DNA from: Anaerolineae bacterium
Lineage (GTDB): Bacteria > Chloroflexota > Anaerolineae > UBA1429
Assembly: GCA_034436315.1 (NCBI GenBank)
Contig: DAOTVR010000130.1
Span: 1-43,477, forward strand
Direction: 5' to 3'
DNA: 43,477 nt
This document shows positions 2 to 28,713 of the stretch, piece after piece. Below the pieces are notes generated by a model. The model had not been told where the DNA came from. It worked only from the letters and a program-made list of their open reading frames with translations, and did not search any database. The position numbers and the translations under genes are program-made. How positions within the stretch are numbered: the first letter of the stretch is position 1; each line of letters begins with the position of its first letter.

Positions 2-1231
2 ACCCCCTGGCAGCCCCTCGCCCCCGGCTCGCCCTACTACTTCTTCGTCCCGCGCCGGGCCGAAAACCCGCACTACCCATCCTGGCCGCAGATCAACCGC
101 ATCTTTCCCGTGAACAGCGTCGGCATCGTCACCGCGCGGGATGGGTTTACCATTGCTTTTGATAAAAGCGAATTACAAAACCGCATTCTGCAATTTCAGA
201 ACGTGCAGGGCTTGCCCGATGAGGTGCTGGCGCAGGCTTACGGACTGAAAGACAAGCCCGGCTGGTCGTTGGCCGCCGCTCGCAAAAAAGTCCAGGCTGA
301 CATGAATGCACAGAATAAAATCTACCCTATCCTCTACCGTCCCTTTGACGTGCGCTATATCTTCTACCATGAAGCCGTCATTGAACGCCCCCGCCCCGAG
401 GTCATGCGCCACATGCTGGCGGGGGAGAACCTGGCGCTCGTTATCACTCGCCAAGTAAAAGCGAGCGAAACTTGGCAACATTGCCTTGTCAGCAACTACA
501 TATTGGAATCGTCCTTAGTATCTAACCACACCAGCGAGATCGGTTACGCCTTTCCCCTCTACCTCTACCCTTCCGACGAGTCGCCGGACATGTTCCAGCG
601 GGCGCGCCGGCCCAACCTGGCCGAGTGGCTCACGCCCCAACTGGCCGCCGCCTACGGCTTCACGCCCACGCCGGAAGAGGTGCTGGCCTACATCTACGCC
701 GTCCTCTACAGCCCGAGCTACCGCGAAAAATACGCCCAGGAACTGCGCGTGGATTTCCCCCGCGTGCCCTTTACGGCGGATGGCGAGCTCTTCCGGCGGA
801 TGGCGGCGTTGGGCCAACAACTGATCGACCTGCACCTGCTGCGTCGCCCCGCCCTGCTCGCGGGGGGTGGCGCGCCGGCGGTCAAGTACCAGGGGCACGG
901 CGACGATACCGTGCAGGCCGTGCGCTACGACGCCCAGGCCCGGCGCGTGTGGATCAACGCGAACAAGTACTTTGAGGGCATCACTGCGGAGATGTGGGGC
1001 TATCCGATCGGCGGCTACCGGGTGTTGGAAAAATACCTGAAAGACCGCAAGGGCCGGCGGCTGGAAGACCCCGTGCGCTACATTCACATCGCCACGGCCA
1101 TCGCCCACACGATAGAGCTTCAGCGGCAGCTAGAAGCGCTCTACCCGCAGGTGGAGGACGAGGTTTTGCCCTTGGCCACCCAAACGGCGTCCGGGGCCGA
1201 CGCCCTCCTCGGCGGTGCGGCCGAGACATAG
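2..1231 (+). CDS. Type ISP / Type IIG restriction-modification enzyme, C-terminal region (5' end cut by window edge)
   Basis: Frame 2 is open from base 2 (TPWQPLAPGSPYYFFVP..IFPVNSVGIVTARD) into listed ORF 110..1231. The motifs YYFFVP, NSxGIxTARD, RPFDxRYIxY, NLALxxxRQ, YAFPLY, LYSPxYRxKY and DFPRVP match my memory of the C-terminal domain of LlaGI/LlaBIII-type enzymes. Confidence 0.75.
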   Translation, partial: TPWQPLAPGSPYYFFVPRRAENPHYPSWPQINRIFPVNSVGIVTARDGFTIAFDKSELQNRILQFQNVQGLPDEVLAQAYGLKDKPGWSLAAARKKVQADMNAQNKIYPILYRPFDVRYIFYHEAVIERPRPEVMRHMLAGENLALVITRQVKASETWQHCLVSNYILESSLVSNHTSEIGYAFPLYLYPSDESPDMFQRARRPNLAEWLTPQLAAAYGFTPTPEEVLAYIYAVLYSPSYREKYAQELRVDFPRVPFTADGELFRRMAALGQQLIDLHLLRRPALLAGGGAPAVKYQGHGDDTVQAVRYDAQARRVWINANKYFEGITAEMWGYPIGGYRVLEKYLKDRKGRRLEDPVRYIHIATAIAHTIELQRQLEALYPQVEDEVLPLATQTASGADALLGGAAET

Positions 1232-7074: not shown

Positions 7075-7150
7075 GGCTGAAGTCCTCAGCCTTCAGCGAT
7101 CAGCCATCAGCCCTCGGCTGAGGGGCTGACGGCTGAAAGCTGATAGCCGA
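7075..7150. repeat. Heptamer-armed hairpin element (family 2)
   Basis: Left arm is CCTCAGC CTTCAGC GATCAGC CATCAGC CCTCGGC. Right arm is GGGGCTG ACGGCTG AAAGCTG ATAGCCG. It lies directly after the stop at 7060. Confidence 0.7.
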
Positions 7151-12080: not shown

Positions 12081-12515
12081 ATGCCCAAGAACCCCCGCAA
12101 GCGCCGCTGCGAGGTGCAGGGCTGCCGGGCCTGGGCCAAGCGCGGCGAGAGCTTGTGCGCCGCACACCTGCATTCGCGCCTGGTACAGGAGCGCCCCGAG
12201 CTGCTCCTGCCCTTGTTGCGCGCCGTGGCCCAGGGGATGGAGGAGCGCCCCCTGGACGACCTGCGGCTCATCGATCAGGAGCTGCGCAACCTCTTTTTGG
12301 CGCGGGCCTTTTTCATCGCCTGGGTGGAGAAGCTGCGCGCCGAGCCGCCCGAGAGGCCCGGCCTGGGGCCGGGGCAGTTCCTGCGCGCCTGGAACGAGTC
12401 CACCGCCCGCCTGGTGCAGCTCTTGCGCGCCCGCCGCGAGCTGGGCGGCGACCAAGAGGGGGAATTCGGCGAGCTGATCCGCAGCGTGTACGAAACGCTG
12501 GAAGGGGATCAGTAA
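12081..12515 (+). CDS. Hypothetical small protein with an N-terminal Cys/His cluster
   Basis: AGGAGATC-ATG start. The sequence MPKNPRKRRCEVQGCRAWAKRGESLCAAHLH has a C-x4-C-x12-C-x2-H pattern, and the rest is helical. I recognise no family. Confidence 0.55.
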   Translation: MPKNPRKRRCEVQGCRAWAKRGESLCAAHLHSRLVQERPELLLPLLRAVAQGMEERPLDDLRLIDQELRNLFLARAFFIAWVEKLRAEPPERPGLGPGQFLRAWNESTARLVQLLRARRELGGDQEGEFGELIRSVYETLEGDQ

Positions 12516-12683
12516 TCAGCTTTCAGCGGTCAGCTTTCGGCTGTCAGCAACCAGCTTTCGGCCGTCGGCGGTCAGTTCTTACCCTGGGGGATGATCGCTG
12601 ACCGAAAAAGCCGATAGCTGCCGGCTGACCGCTGATAGCTGATAACCGAAGGCTGACCGCTGAGGCCTGACTACTGATAACTG
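12516..12683. repeat. Heptamer-armed hairpin element (family 2) between convergent genes
   Basis: Left arm is ATCAGCT TTCAGCG GTCAGCT TTCGGCT GTCAGCA ACCAGCT TTCGGCC GTCGGCG GTCAG. After the loop, the right arm reads GCTGACC..GCTGATA GCTGATA..GCTGACC GCTGAGG. Its last units encode ..GSYQ* of the minus-strand ORF. Confidence 0.75.
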
Positions 12684-13492
12684 CCTGGCGGCAACAGCGG
12701 GGCCATGTGGCTCCAGAGGTTAAAGTAGCGCCCACCGGAGACGCGGCCCACGTCGTCGCGGTAGGCTTGGAGGAAGACGAGGGAGACGCGGCGATGCTCG
12801 GCCGCCCAGCGTTCCAGGGAGCGGAGGAGGAGCCGTGCGGGGCCCTCCACATCCCAATGGCGACAAAAGACGCCCATGTAGGCCCGTTCGGCGTCCGCCT
12901 CGGAGCGCACCAAGGCGAGGAAATCGGCCTCCAGCTCGGCCAGGACCTCGGCGGGGATGGGTTTCAGGCCCTCCCCTAAGTCTACCAAGGCCAAGTTGAC
13001 GGCTGCCAGGAGCGGCCTGGGGCACGCCCCCGGAGGGAGGGCGCGCAGCTCGGCGGCGCAGCGGGGATCGGCATTGGCCACGGTCTTCAGCTCATAGGCG
13101 CGCACAAAGCCGGGGTCGAGCAGGACTATATCGTAAGGATGAAGGGTGAAGGATGAAGGATGGACCGTGGCCCTCATCTCCCTTGGTCCCCCTTCTCCCA
13201 AGTTTGGGAGAAGGGGGGAAGGGGGTTGAGGGTCCTTCGTCCTTCCGCCTTCATCCTTCCCCATGAGGCCCAGCTCGTAAGCCAGGAGAGGAGGGTAATC
13301 GCGGTGTAGCAGGCTCGTCCAGCGGCCATCGCGGGTGGCATAGCGCGCCCTCAAGAGCGGCTCGCGCTCCAAGGCGGCGAAGGCCGCCGCGTGCAGGTCG
13401 GCCTCGCGCAGGAAGAGGTCGGGCGCATCCTGAAACTGCCGGATGAGCTCGGCCAAAGCGCGCTCTAAGGCAACGCAATGTGCAACGCTCAC
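12671..13492 (-). CDS. Hypothetical protein, possible PD-(D/E)XK-fold nuclease, with an in-frame palindromic insert
   Basis: It is the longest ORF in the region and starts with GTG. YDIVLLD..AYELKT fits an hD..(D/E)xK signature. Residues GKDEGG..FTLHP are encoded by the 13135-13262 palindrome. Confidence 0.45.
   Translation of the reverse strand: MSVAHCVALERALAELIRQFQDAPDLFLREADLHAAAFAALEREPLLRARYATRDGRWTSLLHRDYPPLLAYELGLMGKDEGGRTKDPQPPSPLLPNLGEGGPREMRATVHPSSFTLHPYDIVLLDPGFVRAYELKTVANADPRCAAELRALPPGACPRPLLAAVNLALVDLGEGLKPIPAEVLAELEADFLALVRSEADAERAYMGVFCRHWDVEGPARLLLRSLERWAAEHRRVSLVFLQAYRDDVGRVSGGRYFNLWSHMAPLLPPGSYQ
13135..13262. repeat. Family-3 palindromic element with AAGGRTG/CCTTCNN heptamer arms, inside a CDS
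   Basis: Left arm is AAGGATG AAGGGTG AAGGATG AAGGATG. The central perfect palindrome is CCCTTCTCCC-AAGTTT-GGGAGAAGGG. Right arm is CCTTCGT CCTTCCG CCTTCAT CCTTCC. Confidence 0.7.
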
Positions 13493-13508
13493 GAGTTAGT
13501 TCTCAGGA

Positions 13509-13668
13509 GTCAGCTTTCAGCGGTCAGCCATCAGCTATTGGCAGTTAGCGGTCAGCTATCGGTGATCAACCCTTCCGACTTGAAACTAACGGCTAACAGC
13601 TGACGACTGATAGCTGACAGCTGATGGCTGAAAGCTGATAGCTGACGGCTAATGGCTGATGGCCGATC
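13509..13668. repeat. Heptamer-armed hairpin element (family 2), largest copy
   Basis: Left arm from 13511 is CAGCTTT CAGCGGT CAGCCAT CAGCTAT.. Right arm from 13596 is ACAGCTG ACGACTG ATAGCTG ACAGCTG ATGGCTG AAAGCTG ATAGCTG ACGGCTA ATGGCTG ATGGCCG. Confidence 0.8.
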
Positions 13669-13680
13669 ACGGACAACCAG

Positions 13681-13709
13681 ATTGTAAGTTGGTCGCTGGG
13701 GCTTGTCAA
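13681..13709 (-). promoter_or_regulatory. Consensus sigma70 promoter between two hairpin elements, facing the 12671..13492 ORF
   Basis: The minus strand reads TTGACA-17nt-TACAAT. Confidence 0.55.
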
Positions 13710-13718
13710 CTGCGATGG

Positions 13719-13812
13719 CTGTCAGTGTTCAGCAGTCAGTCGTCAGCGGTCAGCCAGCTCTTGGCCGTCGGCCATTCCGGCTGAGGGCTGAAAGCTGGCT
13801 GCTGATAGCTAC
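13719..13812. repeat. Heptamer-armed hairpin element (family 2)
   Basis: The left arm is GTCAGTG TTCAGCA GTCAGTC GTCAGCG GTCAGCC AGC. After the loop, the right arm is GGCTGAGG GCTGAAA GCTGGCT GCTGATA GCT. It is read through by the listed ORF 13703.. but is probably non-coding. Confidence 0.7.
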
Positions 13813-13825
13813 TTCGGAGGTTTCC

Positions 13826-15337
13826 TTGGAGATTCCCGATCGCGATCGAGCCCGGCTGCGGGCCAGGCTGGTGCGCGCCCTATCGGATATCGGCGCCTTC
13901 AGCCGCGAGGTGCTGCGGCGGCCGCTGCGCGGTTACCAGCTAGAGGTGGCGCGGGCCATCGTCGCCTCGGTCCTGGGGGGCCGGGGGCTGACCTTCGCGG
14001 TGATGATGGCCCGCCAGGCAGGCAAAAACGAGACCTCGGCCCAGGTGGAGGCCTTTTTGCTCAACTACTTTCGCCGCCGGGGCGGGTACCTCGTCAAGGC
14101 CGCGCCCACCTTCAAGCCGCAGGCAGCCAACAGCCTCCTACGGCTGAGGGCGGTGTTGGAGGGCAGCCTCCTCCCCCCGCCGAAGCACGAGGGGGGCTAT
14201 ATCCTGCGCGTGGGCCGGGCGCGGGCGCTTTTCCTCTCGGCCGGCCCCCAGGCCAACGTCGTGGGGGCCACGGCGAACATCCTCCTGGAGGCCGACGAGG
14301 CCCAGGATATAGACGAGGCCAAGTGGGAGAAGGACTTTCGCCCCATGGGGGCCTCCACCAACGTCACCACTGTCCTGTGGGGCACGGCCTGGACCTCGGC
14401 GACGCTCCTGGCGCGGGCCATCCGCGCCCTGCGCCAGGCCGAGGAGCGCGACGGCCTGCGGCGCGTCTTTATCGTCCCCTGGGAGGTCGTGGCCCAGGAG
14501 GTGCCGCCCTATGGGGAGTATATCCGAGGGGAGCTGGAGCGCCTGGGGCCGAACCACCCCTTCATCAAGACCCAGTACGACCTGGAGGAGATAGATGACC
14601 AGGGCGGGATGTTCCCCCCGGCCACGCGCGCGCTCATGGTCGGCACGCACCCGCGCCAACGCGCCCCCACCGAGGGGCGGGAATACGCCCTGCTGGTGGA
14701 CGTGGCCGGCGCATCCGAGGAGCACGCCGGCGGGGGCGTTCAAGCTCTTACCAACTTGGGCGTTCCATCGAACGCCCCTACTGAGCCGCGGCGGGATTCC
14801 ACGGCCCTGACCATCGTGGAGATCGTCCGCAACGAGCTGGGGTTGCCCCGCTTCCTGGTCGTGGATCGCTACGAGTGGACGGGCACGCCCCATCACCAAC
14901 TTTACGGGGCCATCGTGCACCTGGCCGAGCTGTGGGCCCCGACGCGGATCGTCGTGGATGCCACCGGCGTGGGCGCGGGGCTGGCCTCCTTCTTGCGCCA
15001 CGCCCTGGGGGAGCGCGTGCTACCCTTCACCTTCACCCTGGCGAGCAAGAGCGAGCTGGGCTGGGGCTTTTTGGGCATCTGCAACTCGGGGCGCTTCCTG
15101 GATCACCGCGACGACGGCTCGCCGGAGCGCGAGCGCTTCTGGCGCCAGGTGGCCGCCGCCGATTACGAGGTGCTGGCCGGGCCGGATCAGCGCATGCGCT
15201 GGGGCGTGCGCGACGCGGCGGTGCACGACGACCTGCTCATCTCCGCCGCCCTCTGCGCCCTATTGGATCACCGGGCGCCGGCCCCGTATAGCGGCTCGCA
15301 GATCATCGAGGCCGGCGATCCGTTGGCAAGTAGTTAG
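13826..15337 (+). CDS. Phage terminase large subunit-like protein (ATPase plus RNaseH-like nuclease)
   Basis: Has a Walker A-like motif (MMARQAGKNETS), a Walker B motif (ILLEADEAQDI) and a C-terminal VVDATGVGAGLASFL nuclease-type motif. The start is proposed at TTG 13826, after GGAGGTTTCC. The listed start at 13703 lies in repeat DNA. Confidence 0.7.
   Translation: MEIPDRDRARLRARLVRALSDIGAFSREVLRRPLRGYQLEVARAIVASVLGGRGLTFAVMMARQAGKNETSAQVEAFLLNYFRRRGGYLVKAAPTFKPQAANSLLRLRAVLEGSLLPPPKHEGGYILRVGRARALFLSAGPQANVVGATANILLEADEAQDIDEAKWEKDFRPMGASTNVTTVLWGTAWTSATLLARAIRALRQAEERDGLRRVFIVPWEVVAQEVPPYGEYIRGELERLGPNHPFIKTQYDLEEIDDQGGMFPPATRALMVGTHPRQRAPTEGREYALLVDVAGASEEHAGGGVQALTNLGVPSNAPTEPRRDSTALTIVEIVRNELGLPRFLVVDRYEWTGTPHHQLYGAIVHLAELWAPTRIVVDATGVGAGLASFLRHALGERVLPFTFTLASKSELGWGFLGICNSGRFLDHRDDGSPERERFWRQVAAADYEVLAGPDQRMRWGVRDAAVHDDLLISAALCALLDHRAPAPYSGSQIIEAGDPLASS
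14732..14781. repeat. Family-1 palindromic element copy, in frame inside the terminase gene
   Basis: GGGGGCGTTCAAGCTCTTACCAACTTGGGCGTTCCATCGAACGCCCCTAC encodes GGVQALTNLGVPSNAPT. Confidence 0.65.
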
Positions 15338-19689: not shown

Positions 19690-19752
19690 GTTATCAGTGA
19701 TCAGCAATCTGTAGTCAGACTGACCACTGATTGCTGAGAACTGATTACTGAC
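19690..19752. repeat. Heptamer-armed hairpin element (family 2 variant, almost no loop)
   Basis: GTTATCAG TGATCAG CAATCTG TAGTCAG pairs with ACTGACC ACTGATT GCTGAGA ACTGATT ACTGAC. The centre is GTCAG-A-CTGAC. Confidence 0.7.
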
Positions 19753-19773
19753 ACCTGAGAGGGGAGATACGCC

Positions 19774-21117: not shown

Positions 21118-21990
21118 TCAGACCTCAATCCCCAAGAAGGTGCGCAGGAGGAAACCGACCAGGAAGCTGAACGCGGCCACGCTCAGGCTCAGGCCGGCCA
21201 TCTCCAAAAAGCGCCTGCGGAACGGCTCATCCCGGGCGACGGAGAGGTAATAAGTGAACAGGGCGATGATCAGGATCGCCGCCGCCAAGGTGCAGCCCAA
21301 ACAGAGGTAATAGTTCGTCAAGAGCAGATAGGGCAGGATGAGCAGGAAGACGGTGAGGAGGTAGGCCGCGGTGGTGTAGAGCGCGGCCCTCAGCGGATCC
21401 TTGGCCGTCTTCTCCGCCTTCGTAGAGAGGTACTCCGAGGCCCCCATGGAGAAAGAGGCGGCGATGCCGGTGATGGAGCCGGTCAGGGCGATCAAGCGGG
21501 TATCCTGTAAGGCCAGGGTCAGCCCCGCCAGGGCGCCGGTCAGCTCCACCAGGGCATCGTTGAGGCCCAAGACCATGGAGCCGGTGTAACGCAGCCTCTC
21601 CTCGTCCAAGAGTTGGAGCAGGGCCGCCTCATGTTGATCCTCGCTGGACATGATGGCCTCGGCCTCCGGGAGCGCCTCGCGCAGGCACGCGTAGCTATCC
21701 TGGGCGCCCTCCTCGCCCCGCTCCATCAACTTGAGGCCGAAGGTGAAGCCAAAGATCCGGCTGATCCAGCAATACGCCCAGACCCTAAAGCGATCGGGGG
21801 GCACGTCCTGCTGGGTGTAGCTTCGCCAGACACGATAGTGTTGCAGCTCGTCCTGGGCGATCCTCTCCAGCACGCCCCTGTTCTCAGGGGATTTGATCGT
21901 CCGGGCCAGCCGGCTGTAAATGTGATACTCGGTGATCTCGTTCTTCTGAAAGGTCAGCAGCTTACGGCGTAGGTCTTCGCGGAGATCCAT
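21118..21990 (-). CDS. VIT1/CCC1-family Fe/Mn transporter with an N-terminal ferritin-like domain
   Basis: The ferritin-like N-terminus reads EITEYHIYSRLA..ELQHYRVW. The C-terminal TM region reads GLNDALVELTGALAGLT..GASEYLS. Confidence 0.8.
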   Translation of the reverse strand: MDLREDLRRKLLTFQKNEITEYHIYSRLARTIKSPENRGVLERIAQDELQHYRVWRSYTQQDVPPDRFRVWAYCWISRIFGFTFGLKLMERGEEGAQDSYACLREALPEAEAIMSSEDQHEAALLQLLDEERLRYTGSMVLGLNDALVELTGALAGLTLALQDTRLIALTGSITGIAASFSMGASEYLSTKAEKTAKDPLRAALYTTAAYLLTVFLLILPYLLLTNYYLCLGCTLAAAILIIALFTYYLSVARDEPFRRRFLEMAGLSLSVAAFSFLVGFLLRTFLGIEV

Positions 21991-22011
21991 CCTCCCCTCC
22001 CCGATTGTGTT

Positions 22012-22234
22012 GGGGCGTTCAATTGAACGCCCCTGCTGGACGCCCTATCCATCCCCTTATGTAGGGACGTTCAATTGAACGTCCCTACATAAGCGTTCAA
22101 TTGAACGTCCCTACCCAAGCGTCCAACTGACCGCCCCTGTATCCATCCCCTTACGTAGGGGCGTTCAATTGAACGCCCCTACCAAAACGTTCAATTGAAC
22201 GTCCCTACACAAACATTCAAACGAACGCCCCTAC
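22012..22234. repeat. Array of about 7 family-1 palindromic units
   Basis: Full units GTAGGG(A/G)CGTTCAATTGAACG(T/C)CCCTAC lie at 22061-22088 and 22155-22182. 26-nt partial units of the form nnAAGCGTTCAATTGAACGTCCCTAC, some degenerate, lie between them. Confidence 0.85.
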
Positions 22235-22249
22235 ATGTCTGCCCTATCC

Positions 22250-22438
22250 CTACCAGAGGCCGGGGATAAGGCGATAGCGCGTCTTTTGCATGTACTCCCG
22301 ATAGCCCGGCAGCTCGCGCGCCAGCACCTTTTCCTCGTTCAGGATCCTCAGCACCAGGATCACCACGATCAGCAACGTCGGCAGCATAGCCCAGTACGAT
22401 CCCAGGGCCAACGGGGTTAAAACAAGCGCGTCACCAAA
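22250..22438 (-). pseudogene. 3' remnant of an isoprenylcysteine carboxyl methyltransferase (ICMT/PEMT-like) family gene
   Basis: My own minus-strand translation gives ..LTPLALGSYWAMLPTLLIVVILVLRILNEEKVLARELPGYREYMQKTRYRLIPGLW*. That is the characteristic C-terminus of this family. No N-terminal part is present, and the frame runs into the DUF1232 gene. Confidence 0.5.
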
Positions 22439-28617: not shown

Positions 28618-28618
28618 A

Positions 28619-28713
28619 GCCGTCAGTTATCAGCCGTCAGCCATCAGCTAGACTCCCCGCAAGCTGACGACTGATGGCTGAGGGCCGTTTACTAAAAGCC
28701 GACAACTGATAAC
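28619..28713. repeat. Heptamer-armed hairpin element (family 2)
   Basis: The left arm is GCCGTCAG TTATCAGC CGTCAGC CATCAGC. After the loop, the right arm is AGCTGAC GACTGAT GGCTGAG ..CAACTGATAAC. It starts 2 nt after the NUDIX stop. Confidence 0.7.

Follow-up and report, generated by a model that had tools for sequence, protein, structure and literature searches.

The 43,477-nucleotide (nt) stretch analyzed here, contig DAOTVR010000130.1 of an Anaerolineae bacterium (hereafter the window), carries a 128-base hairpin element inside a chromosomal gene for an uncharacterized protein. The arms of the element are arrays of a 7-nt unit, AAGGATG, and the whole element is read without a stop in the frame of the gene. 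Comparison of orthologues, set out below, reveals an indel at one site that most aligned relatives of the protein lack. The host gene and the parts of the element are these:

12671..13492, minus strand: host gene, 273 amino acids (aa), uncharacterized alpha/beta protein; the element falls in a predicted loop between strands E62-66 and E120-125
13135..13262, minus strand: whole hairpin element, 128 bases; in the frame of the host gene it reads GKDEGGRTKD...HPSSFTLHP
13135..13162, plus strand: left arm, four heptamers AAGGATG AAGGGTG AAGGATG AAGGATG
13171..13184, plus strand: left half of the inner stem, CCCTCATCTCCCTT, 86% complementary to AAGGGGGTTGAGGG
13188..13217, no strand: central perfect palindrome CCCCCTTCTCCCAA / TTGGGAGAAGGGGG, 100% complementary; the hairpin of a small core element
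13219..13232, plus strand: right half of the inner stem, AAGGGGGTTGAGGG
13233..13260, plus strand: right arm, four degenerate heptamers TCCTTCG TCCTTCC GCCTTCA TCCTTCC (CCTTCNN form)

A hairpin element inside a protein-coding gene

On the sense strand of the gene, the element runs in the order (AAGGATG AAGGCGG AAGGACG AAGGACC)-CTCAACCCCCTTCC-CCCCTTCTCCC AAAC TTGGGAGAAGGGG-GACCAAGGGAGATGAGGGCC-ACGGTC-(CATCCTT CATCCTT CACCCTT CATCCTT). Its 5′ arm (13233..13260) encodes KDEGGRTKD, and its 3′ arm (13135..13162) encodes HPSSFTLHP. The outer arms pair over 26 nt with 88% complementarity, so that the inverted heptamer arrays form terminal inverted repeats like those of a miniature inverted-repeat transposable element (MITE), and Tandem Repeats Finder called a period-7 array in both arms, the tandem 7-nt unit of arrays of the short tandemly repeated repetitive (STRR) type. 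Between the arms lies a core (13171-13232) that consists of a hairpin, CCCTTCTCCC-N4-GGGAGAAGGG, and a G-rich tail, GGGGATGAGGG. The inner-stem sequence CCCTCATCTCCCTT complements this tail on the sense strand (GGGAGATGAGGG), and the central palindrome is made of two 14-nt halves (13188-13201 and 13204-13217) with a 2-nt spacer between them. The four G-runs of the core could in principle form a G-quadruplex that competes with the hairpin. Inspection of the sequence and its pairing bears out the initial annotation, which had described the arms, the inner pair and the perfect central palindrome at 13135-13262; its minus-strand translation, GKDEGGRTKDPQPPSPLLPNLGEGGPREMRATVHPSSFTLHP, placed between ..LAYELGLM and YDIVLLD.. 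of the ORF (open reading frame) 12671-13492, is likewise correct.

The hairpin is more than a chance arrangement. For a 148-nt stretch, the minimum free energy of the RNA is -91.9 kcal/mol on the plus strand (z -7.6, one long stem) and -84.0 kcal/mol on the minus strand (z -6.4), and on neither strand did any of 200 shuffles fold as stably. Across the 43-kb window, the heptamer-array pattern matched four times against 0.47 expected, a count reached in 0 of 100 shuffles, and the pattern of the central hairpin matched once against 0.00 expected. A scan of the whole window with Rfam at gathering thresholds returned a tRNA alone and no family for the element. A permissive Rfam scan of 12400-13800 gave sub-threshold miRNA-like hairpins and a 'skipping-rope' match (25.8 bits against a cut-off of 36.7), which we dismissed as generic hairpin matches.

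The host ORF is a real protein-coding gene. Its GC content by codon position (0.73/0.48/0.78) is of the coding type, and it has 191 relatives in a full profile search (7 in a word-indexed search), 20 of them at E<1e-30 with lengths of 214-257 aa. The AlphaFold model of the product, built from a 27-sequence alignment, reached a pLDDT (predicted local distance difference test) of 86.7 and a pTM (predicted template modeling score) of 0.83; it supersedes an uninformative model from 8 sequences only (pLDDT 44). These three lines of evidence dispose of the possibility that the ORF is non-coding and the element a simple intergenic repeat. In the model, residues ~71-120 are the sole low-confidence stretch without secondary structure, lying between strands 62-66 and 120-125, and the insert is thus predicted to sit in a loop. 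The predicted junction peptides over the insert are ..AYELGLMGK / DEGGR.. and ..SSFTLHPYDIVLLDPGFVR.

Pfam assigned no family to the host protein, and a Foldseek search against the PDB gave nothing significant, the top matches being YaeQ and SfsA at E ~0.03-0.06. Both are PD-(D/E)xK-like proteins. A D...E-x-K-like pattern (HYDLVVLNP ... AAIEFK) is still present in distant relatives within the host family, where the subfamily of the window has N-L-A; the protein may have a nuclease fold that has lost its activity. A 6-nt in-frame insertion, GGAGGC, occurs at window position 12958 in one metagenome (X3), and the host gene tolerates small indels elsewhere too.

One insertion site in several states

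In the 27-sequence alignment, 23 sequences have just 8-16 aa at the insert site, and between the conserved blocks, ..YPxxxAYE and YDLxxLNP.., a long segment is found only in the window lineage (with P0001) and in two further lineages, P0002 (contig L008) and P0003 (contig L001). The linker between these anchors measures 13 aa in empty orthologues, 46 in the window, 35 in P0002, 64 in P0003 and 8 in P0005. Because the linker of the empty orthologues is 13 aa long and that of the window 46 aa, ~8 codons of the ancestral linker must have been replaced as well. The 42-aa segment is therefore an indel, as the initial annotation had supposed, and the prospect that homologues generally share the segment is gone; what did not hold is a clean insertion, since ~8 of the 13 ancestral linker codons were exchanged in the process. 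This replacement also makes any target duplication at the window site unreadable.

The three filled lineages resemble one another closely at the edges of the element and differ within it. In all three, the arm begins at codon phase 0 with AAGGATG AAGGCGG, CATCCTT units stand at the end, and the same core lies in the same orientation, while the interiors differ by added modules: the left arm of L008 carries TCAGC-type heptamers, and in L001 a further perfect hairpin, CAGACAAGTTTTGGTTC..GAACCAAAACTTGTCTG, is present together with additional left-arm sequence. All three versions fold (z -4.6 to -7.6). Between lineages, the arms are 95-100% identical, compared with 76-87% for the coding flanks and 72-76% for the interior. 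A binomial estimate puts the probability of at most 1 mismatch in 35 nt at ~0.002 for 22% divergence. Arm identity so far above that of the flanks implies homogenization, selection on the arm sequence or recent reacquisition.

Outside the insert, the protein P0005, encoded on contig L009, shares 92% identity with P0003; at the site it has only a short palindrome:

L009:782-1489, codons ~75-82: perfect 24-nt palindrome of P0005, GGGCGAAGAAC TC GTTCTTCGCCC, at the site where P0003 has its 64-aa element-containing linker

This palindrome may have been left behind by a deletion that spanned the hairpin. In a neighbour-joining tree calculated without the insert columns, the filled lineages and P0005 fall in one clade, indicating one gain and one internal deletion (P0005). 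The branch that parts the empty P0004 from the filled clade is short, however, so that repeated gain is possible.

A second core-plus-arms copy is present in the P0003 lineage, 500 bp away and exactly at the stop codon of the gene (..AAAGGATGA..; L001/L281). The two copies in L281 have an identical left junction, which demonstrates copying or gene conversion.

The reading frame of the element is the only open one, stops closing the other 5 of 6 frames; it is thus an indel at one orthologous site, in frame, and open in the frame of the gene alone. At least three perfect AAGGATG units in a row put a TGA (from ATGA) in all three frames, while the CATCCTT strand is stop-free. An in-frame TGA can arise only from unit 2 of the sense 5′ arm, and in all three lineages this unit is AAGGCGG (codon GGA); the stop-free sense 3′ arm stays nearly canonical. 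Judged from the sequence, AAGGCGG at unit 2 appears to be the visible mark of selection on the host protein, the sense 5′ arm being degenerate and the 3′ arm canonical because purifying selection would bar the in-frame TGA.

The host gene is present in hot-spring, microbial-mat and sediment metagenomes, and the element is stable across these populations. Contigs of two sequencing runs span the element, contigs of two other runs break at it, and no empty allele occurs among the metagenome contigs examined. A contig 98.7% identical to the window has two substitutions and no indel in the element; one of the two, 13146 G>A, brings back the canonical AAGGATG. On other contigs of the same samples, both arms are joined through different short loops and represent other AAGGATG hairpins.

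Heptamer hairpins and core modules elsewhere

The core is found by itself in unrelated contigs. Its pattern, CTCCCTTCTCCC-N2-6-GGGAGAAGGG-NN-GGGGATGAGGG, matched 19 IMG/VR contigs (L011-L029), where it is intergenic and lacks heptamer arms, and the same core hairpin is present in L001 and L008. In L017 and L020 the core is paired with a GGGAGAGGGG..GGGGTGAGGG variant as an inverted doublet. The G-rich tail is conserved on one side only, and the core has no GTAG or CGTC head. Since the core occurs alone elsewhere and the composite, in a scan of the metagenome collection, at one locus, the window element is a nested composite and not a member of one high-copy family.

The arms belong to a far wider population. 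Using a three-unit arm pattern, CMYCCTTCATCCTTCMYCCTT, that accepts exact matches only, we collected loci L030-L267 from genomes and IMG/VR, comprising at least 120 loci in species-representative genomes and 118 in the viral contigs of IMG/VR. The statements that follow apply to the matches listed in that search. They cover Chloroflexota, Cyanobacteria, Planctomycetota, Acidobacteriota, Bacteroidota, Verrucomicrobiota, Proteobacteria and other phyla, and include 76 hairpins (70 non-redundant) of the form (AAGGNNG)n - spacer of 3-175 nt - (CNNCCTT)n. Polarity is fixed: AAGGATG is 5′ in 119 arm-level cases and reversed in 4, all 4 having arms >230 nt apart and being neighbouring elements. Spacers are unrelated between genomes and related within a genome (L125). 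Target-site duplication gave a null result, an adjacent repeat of at least 2 nt flanking 7.1% of the 70 non-redundant hairpins against 6.9% of controls. Hairpins on metagenome contigs L276 and L278 pair units of the CATCCTT or TCATCCC type with arms of a related heptamer, AGGGATG / GGGATGA.

AAGGATG hairpins are mostly intergenic. An open frame of at least 200 aa spans 18% of them, compared with 82% of random intervals in the same loci. By crude gene calls they lie mostly between tandem genes, and the stop codon of the upstream gene is often within the left arm, at offsets -22, -15, -8 and -1, as the TGA of ATGA; the P0003 gene itself ends in AAAGGATGA (L001:5876-5950). A few hairpins nevertheless lie in frame within genes, including a kinase gene in a Planctomycetota metagenome-assembled genome (MAG) and the two following:

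L068:2947-4101, minus strand: TsaD (Tepidisphaeraceae MAG), with an in-frame hairpin at aa 139-170 that splits PF00814 in two
L117:2969-6043, minus strand: UvrD (betaproteobacterial MAG), with an in-frame hairpin at aa 711-738, inside UvrD_C

All three hairpins translate as KDEGGR(M/R)KDE...SSFILHPSS, similar to the window element. The UvrD of L117 also has an intein at ~residues 293-511. When 5.8 billion proteins were searched with a profile of the translated arms, the 120 matches listed were mainly 'hypothetical proteins' of 26-81 aa, which are spurious calls over intergenic hairpins; these matches added nothing to the real host genes. In a searchable full-text collection, no paper contained the arm sequences AAGGATGAAGGATG or CATCCTTCATCCTT, and the core motifs appeared in unrelated papers only.

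A second family of heptamer hairpins, built on TCAGC, surrounds the host gene:

12516..12660, no strand: TCAGC-family intergenic hairpin 3′ of the host gene; 7-nt indel between strains
13509..13667, no strand: TCAGC-family intergenic hairpin 5′ of the host gene; strains, and likewise metagenomes, differ here by indels of 28 and 7 nt
7086-7143, 19719-19758 and 28618-28650: other TCAGC-family intergenic hairpins in the window

The 7- and 28-nt indels, seen between the 98.7%-identical strains and in metagenomes, are confined to the neighbouring TCAGC arrays and spare the in-gene arms, indicating that heptamer slippage is active in these genomes and excluded inside the gene. TCAGC-type hairpins are as widespread in IMG/VR as those with AAGGATG arms, again with a fixed polarity (TCAGCNN...NNGCTGA, 47 against 5). 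The likeness in architecture to this family, to which the initial annotation had pointed, thus extends to both features, inverted heptamer arrays and fixed polarity. Upstream of the P0003 gene, the divergent intergenic region (L001:4780-4950) is taken up by a third family of heptamer hairpins, (TGGTTCN)n ... (NGAACCA)n; in the window, a TCAGC hairpin stands at that position.

The host gene lies between a 144-aa gene and a ~500-aa gene that is weakly terminase-like, followed by a sigma factor of the extracytoplasmic function type, with housekeeping genes around. We considered a phage origin and rejected it: the Terminase_6C match of the neighbour scores only 21.3 bits against a cut-off of 22.6, and because the gene trio is syntenic beside housekeeping genes in several chromosomal contigs, the region is chromosomal and not phage. 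The neighbouring ORF was called mechanically from 13703 (window 13703-15337), a start that crosses TCAGC heptamers at 13721-13754; in the near-identical contig L268 the same gene is called with 503 aa, so that its true start should lie near window position 13826.

Elsewhere in the window, the intergenic region 21990-22417 contains a 94-nt tandem duplication of 26-nt units (22046-22232), each with a perfect palindrome, CGTTCAATTGAACG, which looks like a putative binding-site array. At the start of the window (110-1231), a possibly truncated ORF encodes the C-terminal specificity domain of a Type ISP restriction enzyme, and a tRNA gene occupies 2039-2112 on the minus strand.

Origin of the element and its place among known systems

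The explanation that we consider likely is that the element is tolerated hairpin DNA, selfish or born of slippage, in a variable surface loop encoded by an ordinary gene of the chromosome, predicted to be read through as a disordered loop of ~40 residues. It would have entered in the common ancestor of the window, P0002 and P0003 lineages, and would have been transcribed and translated ever since as an extra loop, with additional small modules later gained inside it in the sister lineages. Small hairpin modules may be copied into existing hairpins or arrays, by way of single-stranded DNA or template switching rather than by cut-and-paste transposition with target duplication; the arms may then grow, shrink and homogenize by slippage in 7-nt steps; and purifying selection on the host protein would admit only lengths that are a multiple of three and leave no in-frame TGA. 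The lack of target duplication, the nesting in hairpins, the 7-nt dynamics and the one local duplication together argue for slippage combined with copying that is hairpin-directed or proceeds by template switching. For the host, the element is probably of no use.

Several observations weigh against this explanation. The initial annotation had looked to further AAGGATG-armed copies in the genome, and the 43-kb window holds no second AAGGATG arm or core copy; in a scan of the metagenome collection, the combination of core tail and AAGGATG arm occurs at the orthologous locus only; and the mobility of the window element rests on one duplication in one lineage. When units were paired from the outer ends, a complementary variant stood in the opposite arm for only 1 of 84 variant-containing unit pairs, which argues against simple hairpin-templated correction. 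A protein search finds intact proteins only, so the in-frame state of the three versions is partly a matter of how the sample was selected. The sole RNA run with any of the region, from one metatranscriptome, covers 13414-13551, outside the element. Finally, conservation of the arms far beyond that of the flanks fits recent independent hot-spot insertions or selection on the arm sequence.

The first of these two possibilities is that the three lineages gained AAGGATG-armed hairpins independently at the same sequence- or structure-defined target. It would explain why the arms are so much more alike than the flanks, why the interiors differ greatly in length and content, why P0005, so close to P0003 elsewhere, has a different palindrome at the site, and why the empty P0004 is 81% identical to P0003 when P0003 and the window share 72%. 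We regard it as unlikely, because the three versions share their codon phase, their first units (AAGGATG AAGGCGG) and a core identical in kind and orientation, the aligned interior has diverged about as much as the flanks, and the filled lineages form one clade in the neighbour-joining tree. Alternatively, the element may have grown in place, a short loop seed having been expanded by heptamer slippage and fold-back template switching, with its likeness to other copies being convergent. The nested hairpin of L001 has no heptamer structure, though, and the specific ~40-nt core stands alone in 19 unrelated IMG/VR contigs and a second time 500 bp away in L001/L281, so that slippage cannot have created the core. 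We therefore give growth in place a slightly smaller chance still, even though it accords with the multiple-of-seven indels in neighbouring arrays of near-identical strains, with the absence of target-site duplication and of an interior conserved between genomes, and with a composite that is not multi-copy.

A function for the host is improbable in our estimate, whether the hairpin were to regulate the gene as RNA (a target of RNase III, a ribosome pause site or an array bound by a CsrA-like factor or by one that recognizes Shine-Dalgarno sequences) or the peptide were an adaptive linker. The element has been kept over ~30% protein divergence and in several populations, its arms are better conserved than the coding flanks, and the same heptamer with fixed polarity recurs in many phyla, often abutting gene ends; AAGGAUG presumably also fits the CsrA consensus ARGGAUG and the Shine-Dalgarno consensus. 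However, the GGA motifs are base-paired in the hairpin and not exposed, the interior peptide is unconserved and predicted to be disordered, 23 of the 27 aligned family members do without the element, and P0005 has lost it. Bypassed or spliced elements are known elsewhere, as in T4 gene 60 and the mitochondrial byp elements, and a very stable hairpin inside an ORF recalls them. Removal of the segment as an intron, as an intein or by translational bypassing, such that it never appears in the protein, is nonetheless very improbable: 42 aa or 128 nt is far too small for an intein or a group I/II intron, Rfam has no family above threshold and Pfam no match on the host protein, and all three versions are in frame and stop-free with the in-frame TGA specifically removed, which would be needless if the segment were skipped.

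A broader proposal, possible but doubtful in our view, is that the fixed-polarity heptamer hairpins 5′-(AAGGATG)n-loop-(CATCCTT)n-3′ and 5′-(TCAGCNN)n-loop-(NNGCTGA)n-3′ constitute an unrecognized class of self-propagating DNA across bacteria. Such hairpins would spread in a hairpin-directed manner without target duplication, would home to gene ends and provide the stop codon there with their arm, would serve as nests for mini-hairpins, and would on occasion lie in frame in essential genes such as TsaD and UvrD. If so, the occurrence of the same heptamer in many phyla would be due either to horizontal spread or to a molecular constraint common to them, such as mimicry of ribosome-binding or CsrA sites by AAGGAUG.

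Colonization of genes by in-frame palindromes has been documented mainly in Rickettsia, and the same outcome is seen here in an unrelated, free-living bacterium. The case offers an unusually clear record, with empty, filled, further nested and secondarily deleted orthologues, a model of the loop and the loss of the single in-frame TGA. Bacterial heptamer repeats have long been noted as over-represented, without explanation; the fixed polarity, the contact with stop codons and the in-frame cases in TsaD and UvrD make their origin testable. In annotation, AAGGATG hairpins give rise to spurious 'hypothetical proteins' of 26-81 aa by the hundred, and they also break metagenome assemblies.

It is instructive to set the element beside known repeat systems. 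Heptamer repeats have been described as TAACTGA in Beggiatoaceae, cyanobacteria and Bacteroidetes (PMC4679880) and as GGGAATC / GGGGAYT in Xanthomonas and Nostoc (PMC4692102). The forward strand of TAACTGA-type arrays has stops in three frames, so these arrays overlap upstream stop codons, and inside ORFs only reverse arrays occur (PMC4679880). The hairpins studied here share with them the intergenic location, the patchy distribution across phyla, some inverted pairs and the same stop-codon rules; the described repeats are, however, mainly direct arrays, usually with no partner arm, whereas here the unit is a hairpin of fixed polarity, (AAGGATG)n-loop-(CATCCTT)n. The REP, BIME and REPIN families are likewise short extragenic palindromes, often between operon genes and sometimes in inverted doublets such as those of the core in L017 and L020, but in the present elements, which have no known RAYT partner, the GTAG or CGTC head is absent and heptamers make up the arms. 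Bacterial MITEs (Correia, ERIC, Nezha, Chunjie) are comparable in size, inverted ends, non-coding nature and occasional in-frame ORF fusions; they differ from the present elements, which show no target-site duplication, no interior conserved between genomes and no known parent insertion sequence. None of the 20 window ORFs scanned contains a transposase domain.

Rickettsia palindromic elements (RPEs), of which the locus had reminded the initial annotation, are palindromic repeats of ~100-150 bp that lie in frame inside ORFs and add a peptide at positions compatible with the fold (PMC10969869). The resemblance holds for behaviour, an in-frame insertion into an ORF at a position that the fold tolerates, here a predicted loop, and fails for family membership, be it by sequence, by host or by copy number. 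In RPE families, both the consensus sequence and the peptide it encodes are conserved over many copies per genome, whereas here only the heptamer arms are common to the copies, the composite occurs at a single locus in the metagenome scan and once in the window, and the relatives of the arms are mostly intergenic. The host is a GC-rich (~65%) hot-spring or mat bacterium, and the element, with its AAGGATG heptamers and GGGAGAAGGG core, is set apart from RPEs by description and not by alignment to an RPE consensus. The closest system in architecture is that of the cyanobacterial tandem heptamers (STRR), which Elhai and co-workers reportedly described in 2008 as often forming inverted pairs and as landing places for very small hairpin modules, some of them nested. 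Arrays of a 7-nt unit with nested small hairpin modules are common to both; what distinguishes the present elements is their heptamers, AAGGATG and TCAGCNN, their GC-rich hot-spring host, their occurrence in many phyla and the case described here of an element lying in frame within a gene.

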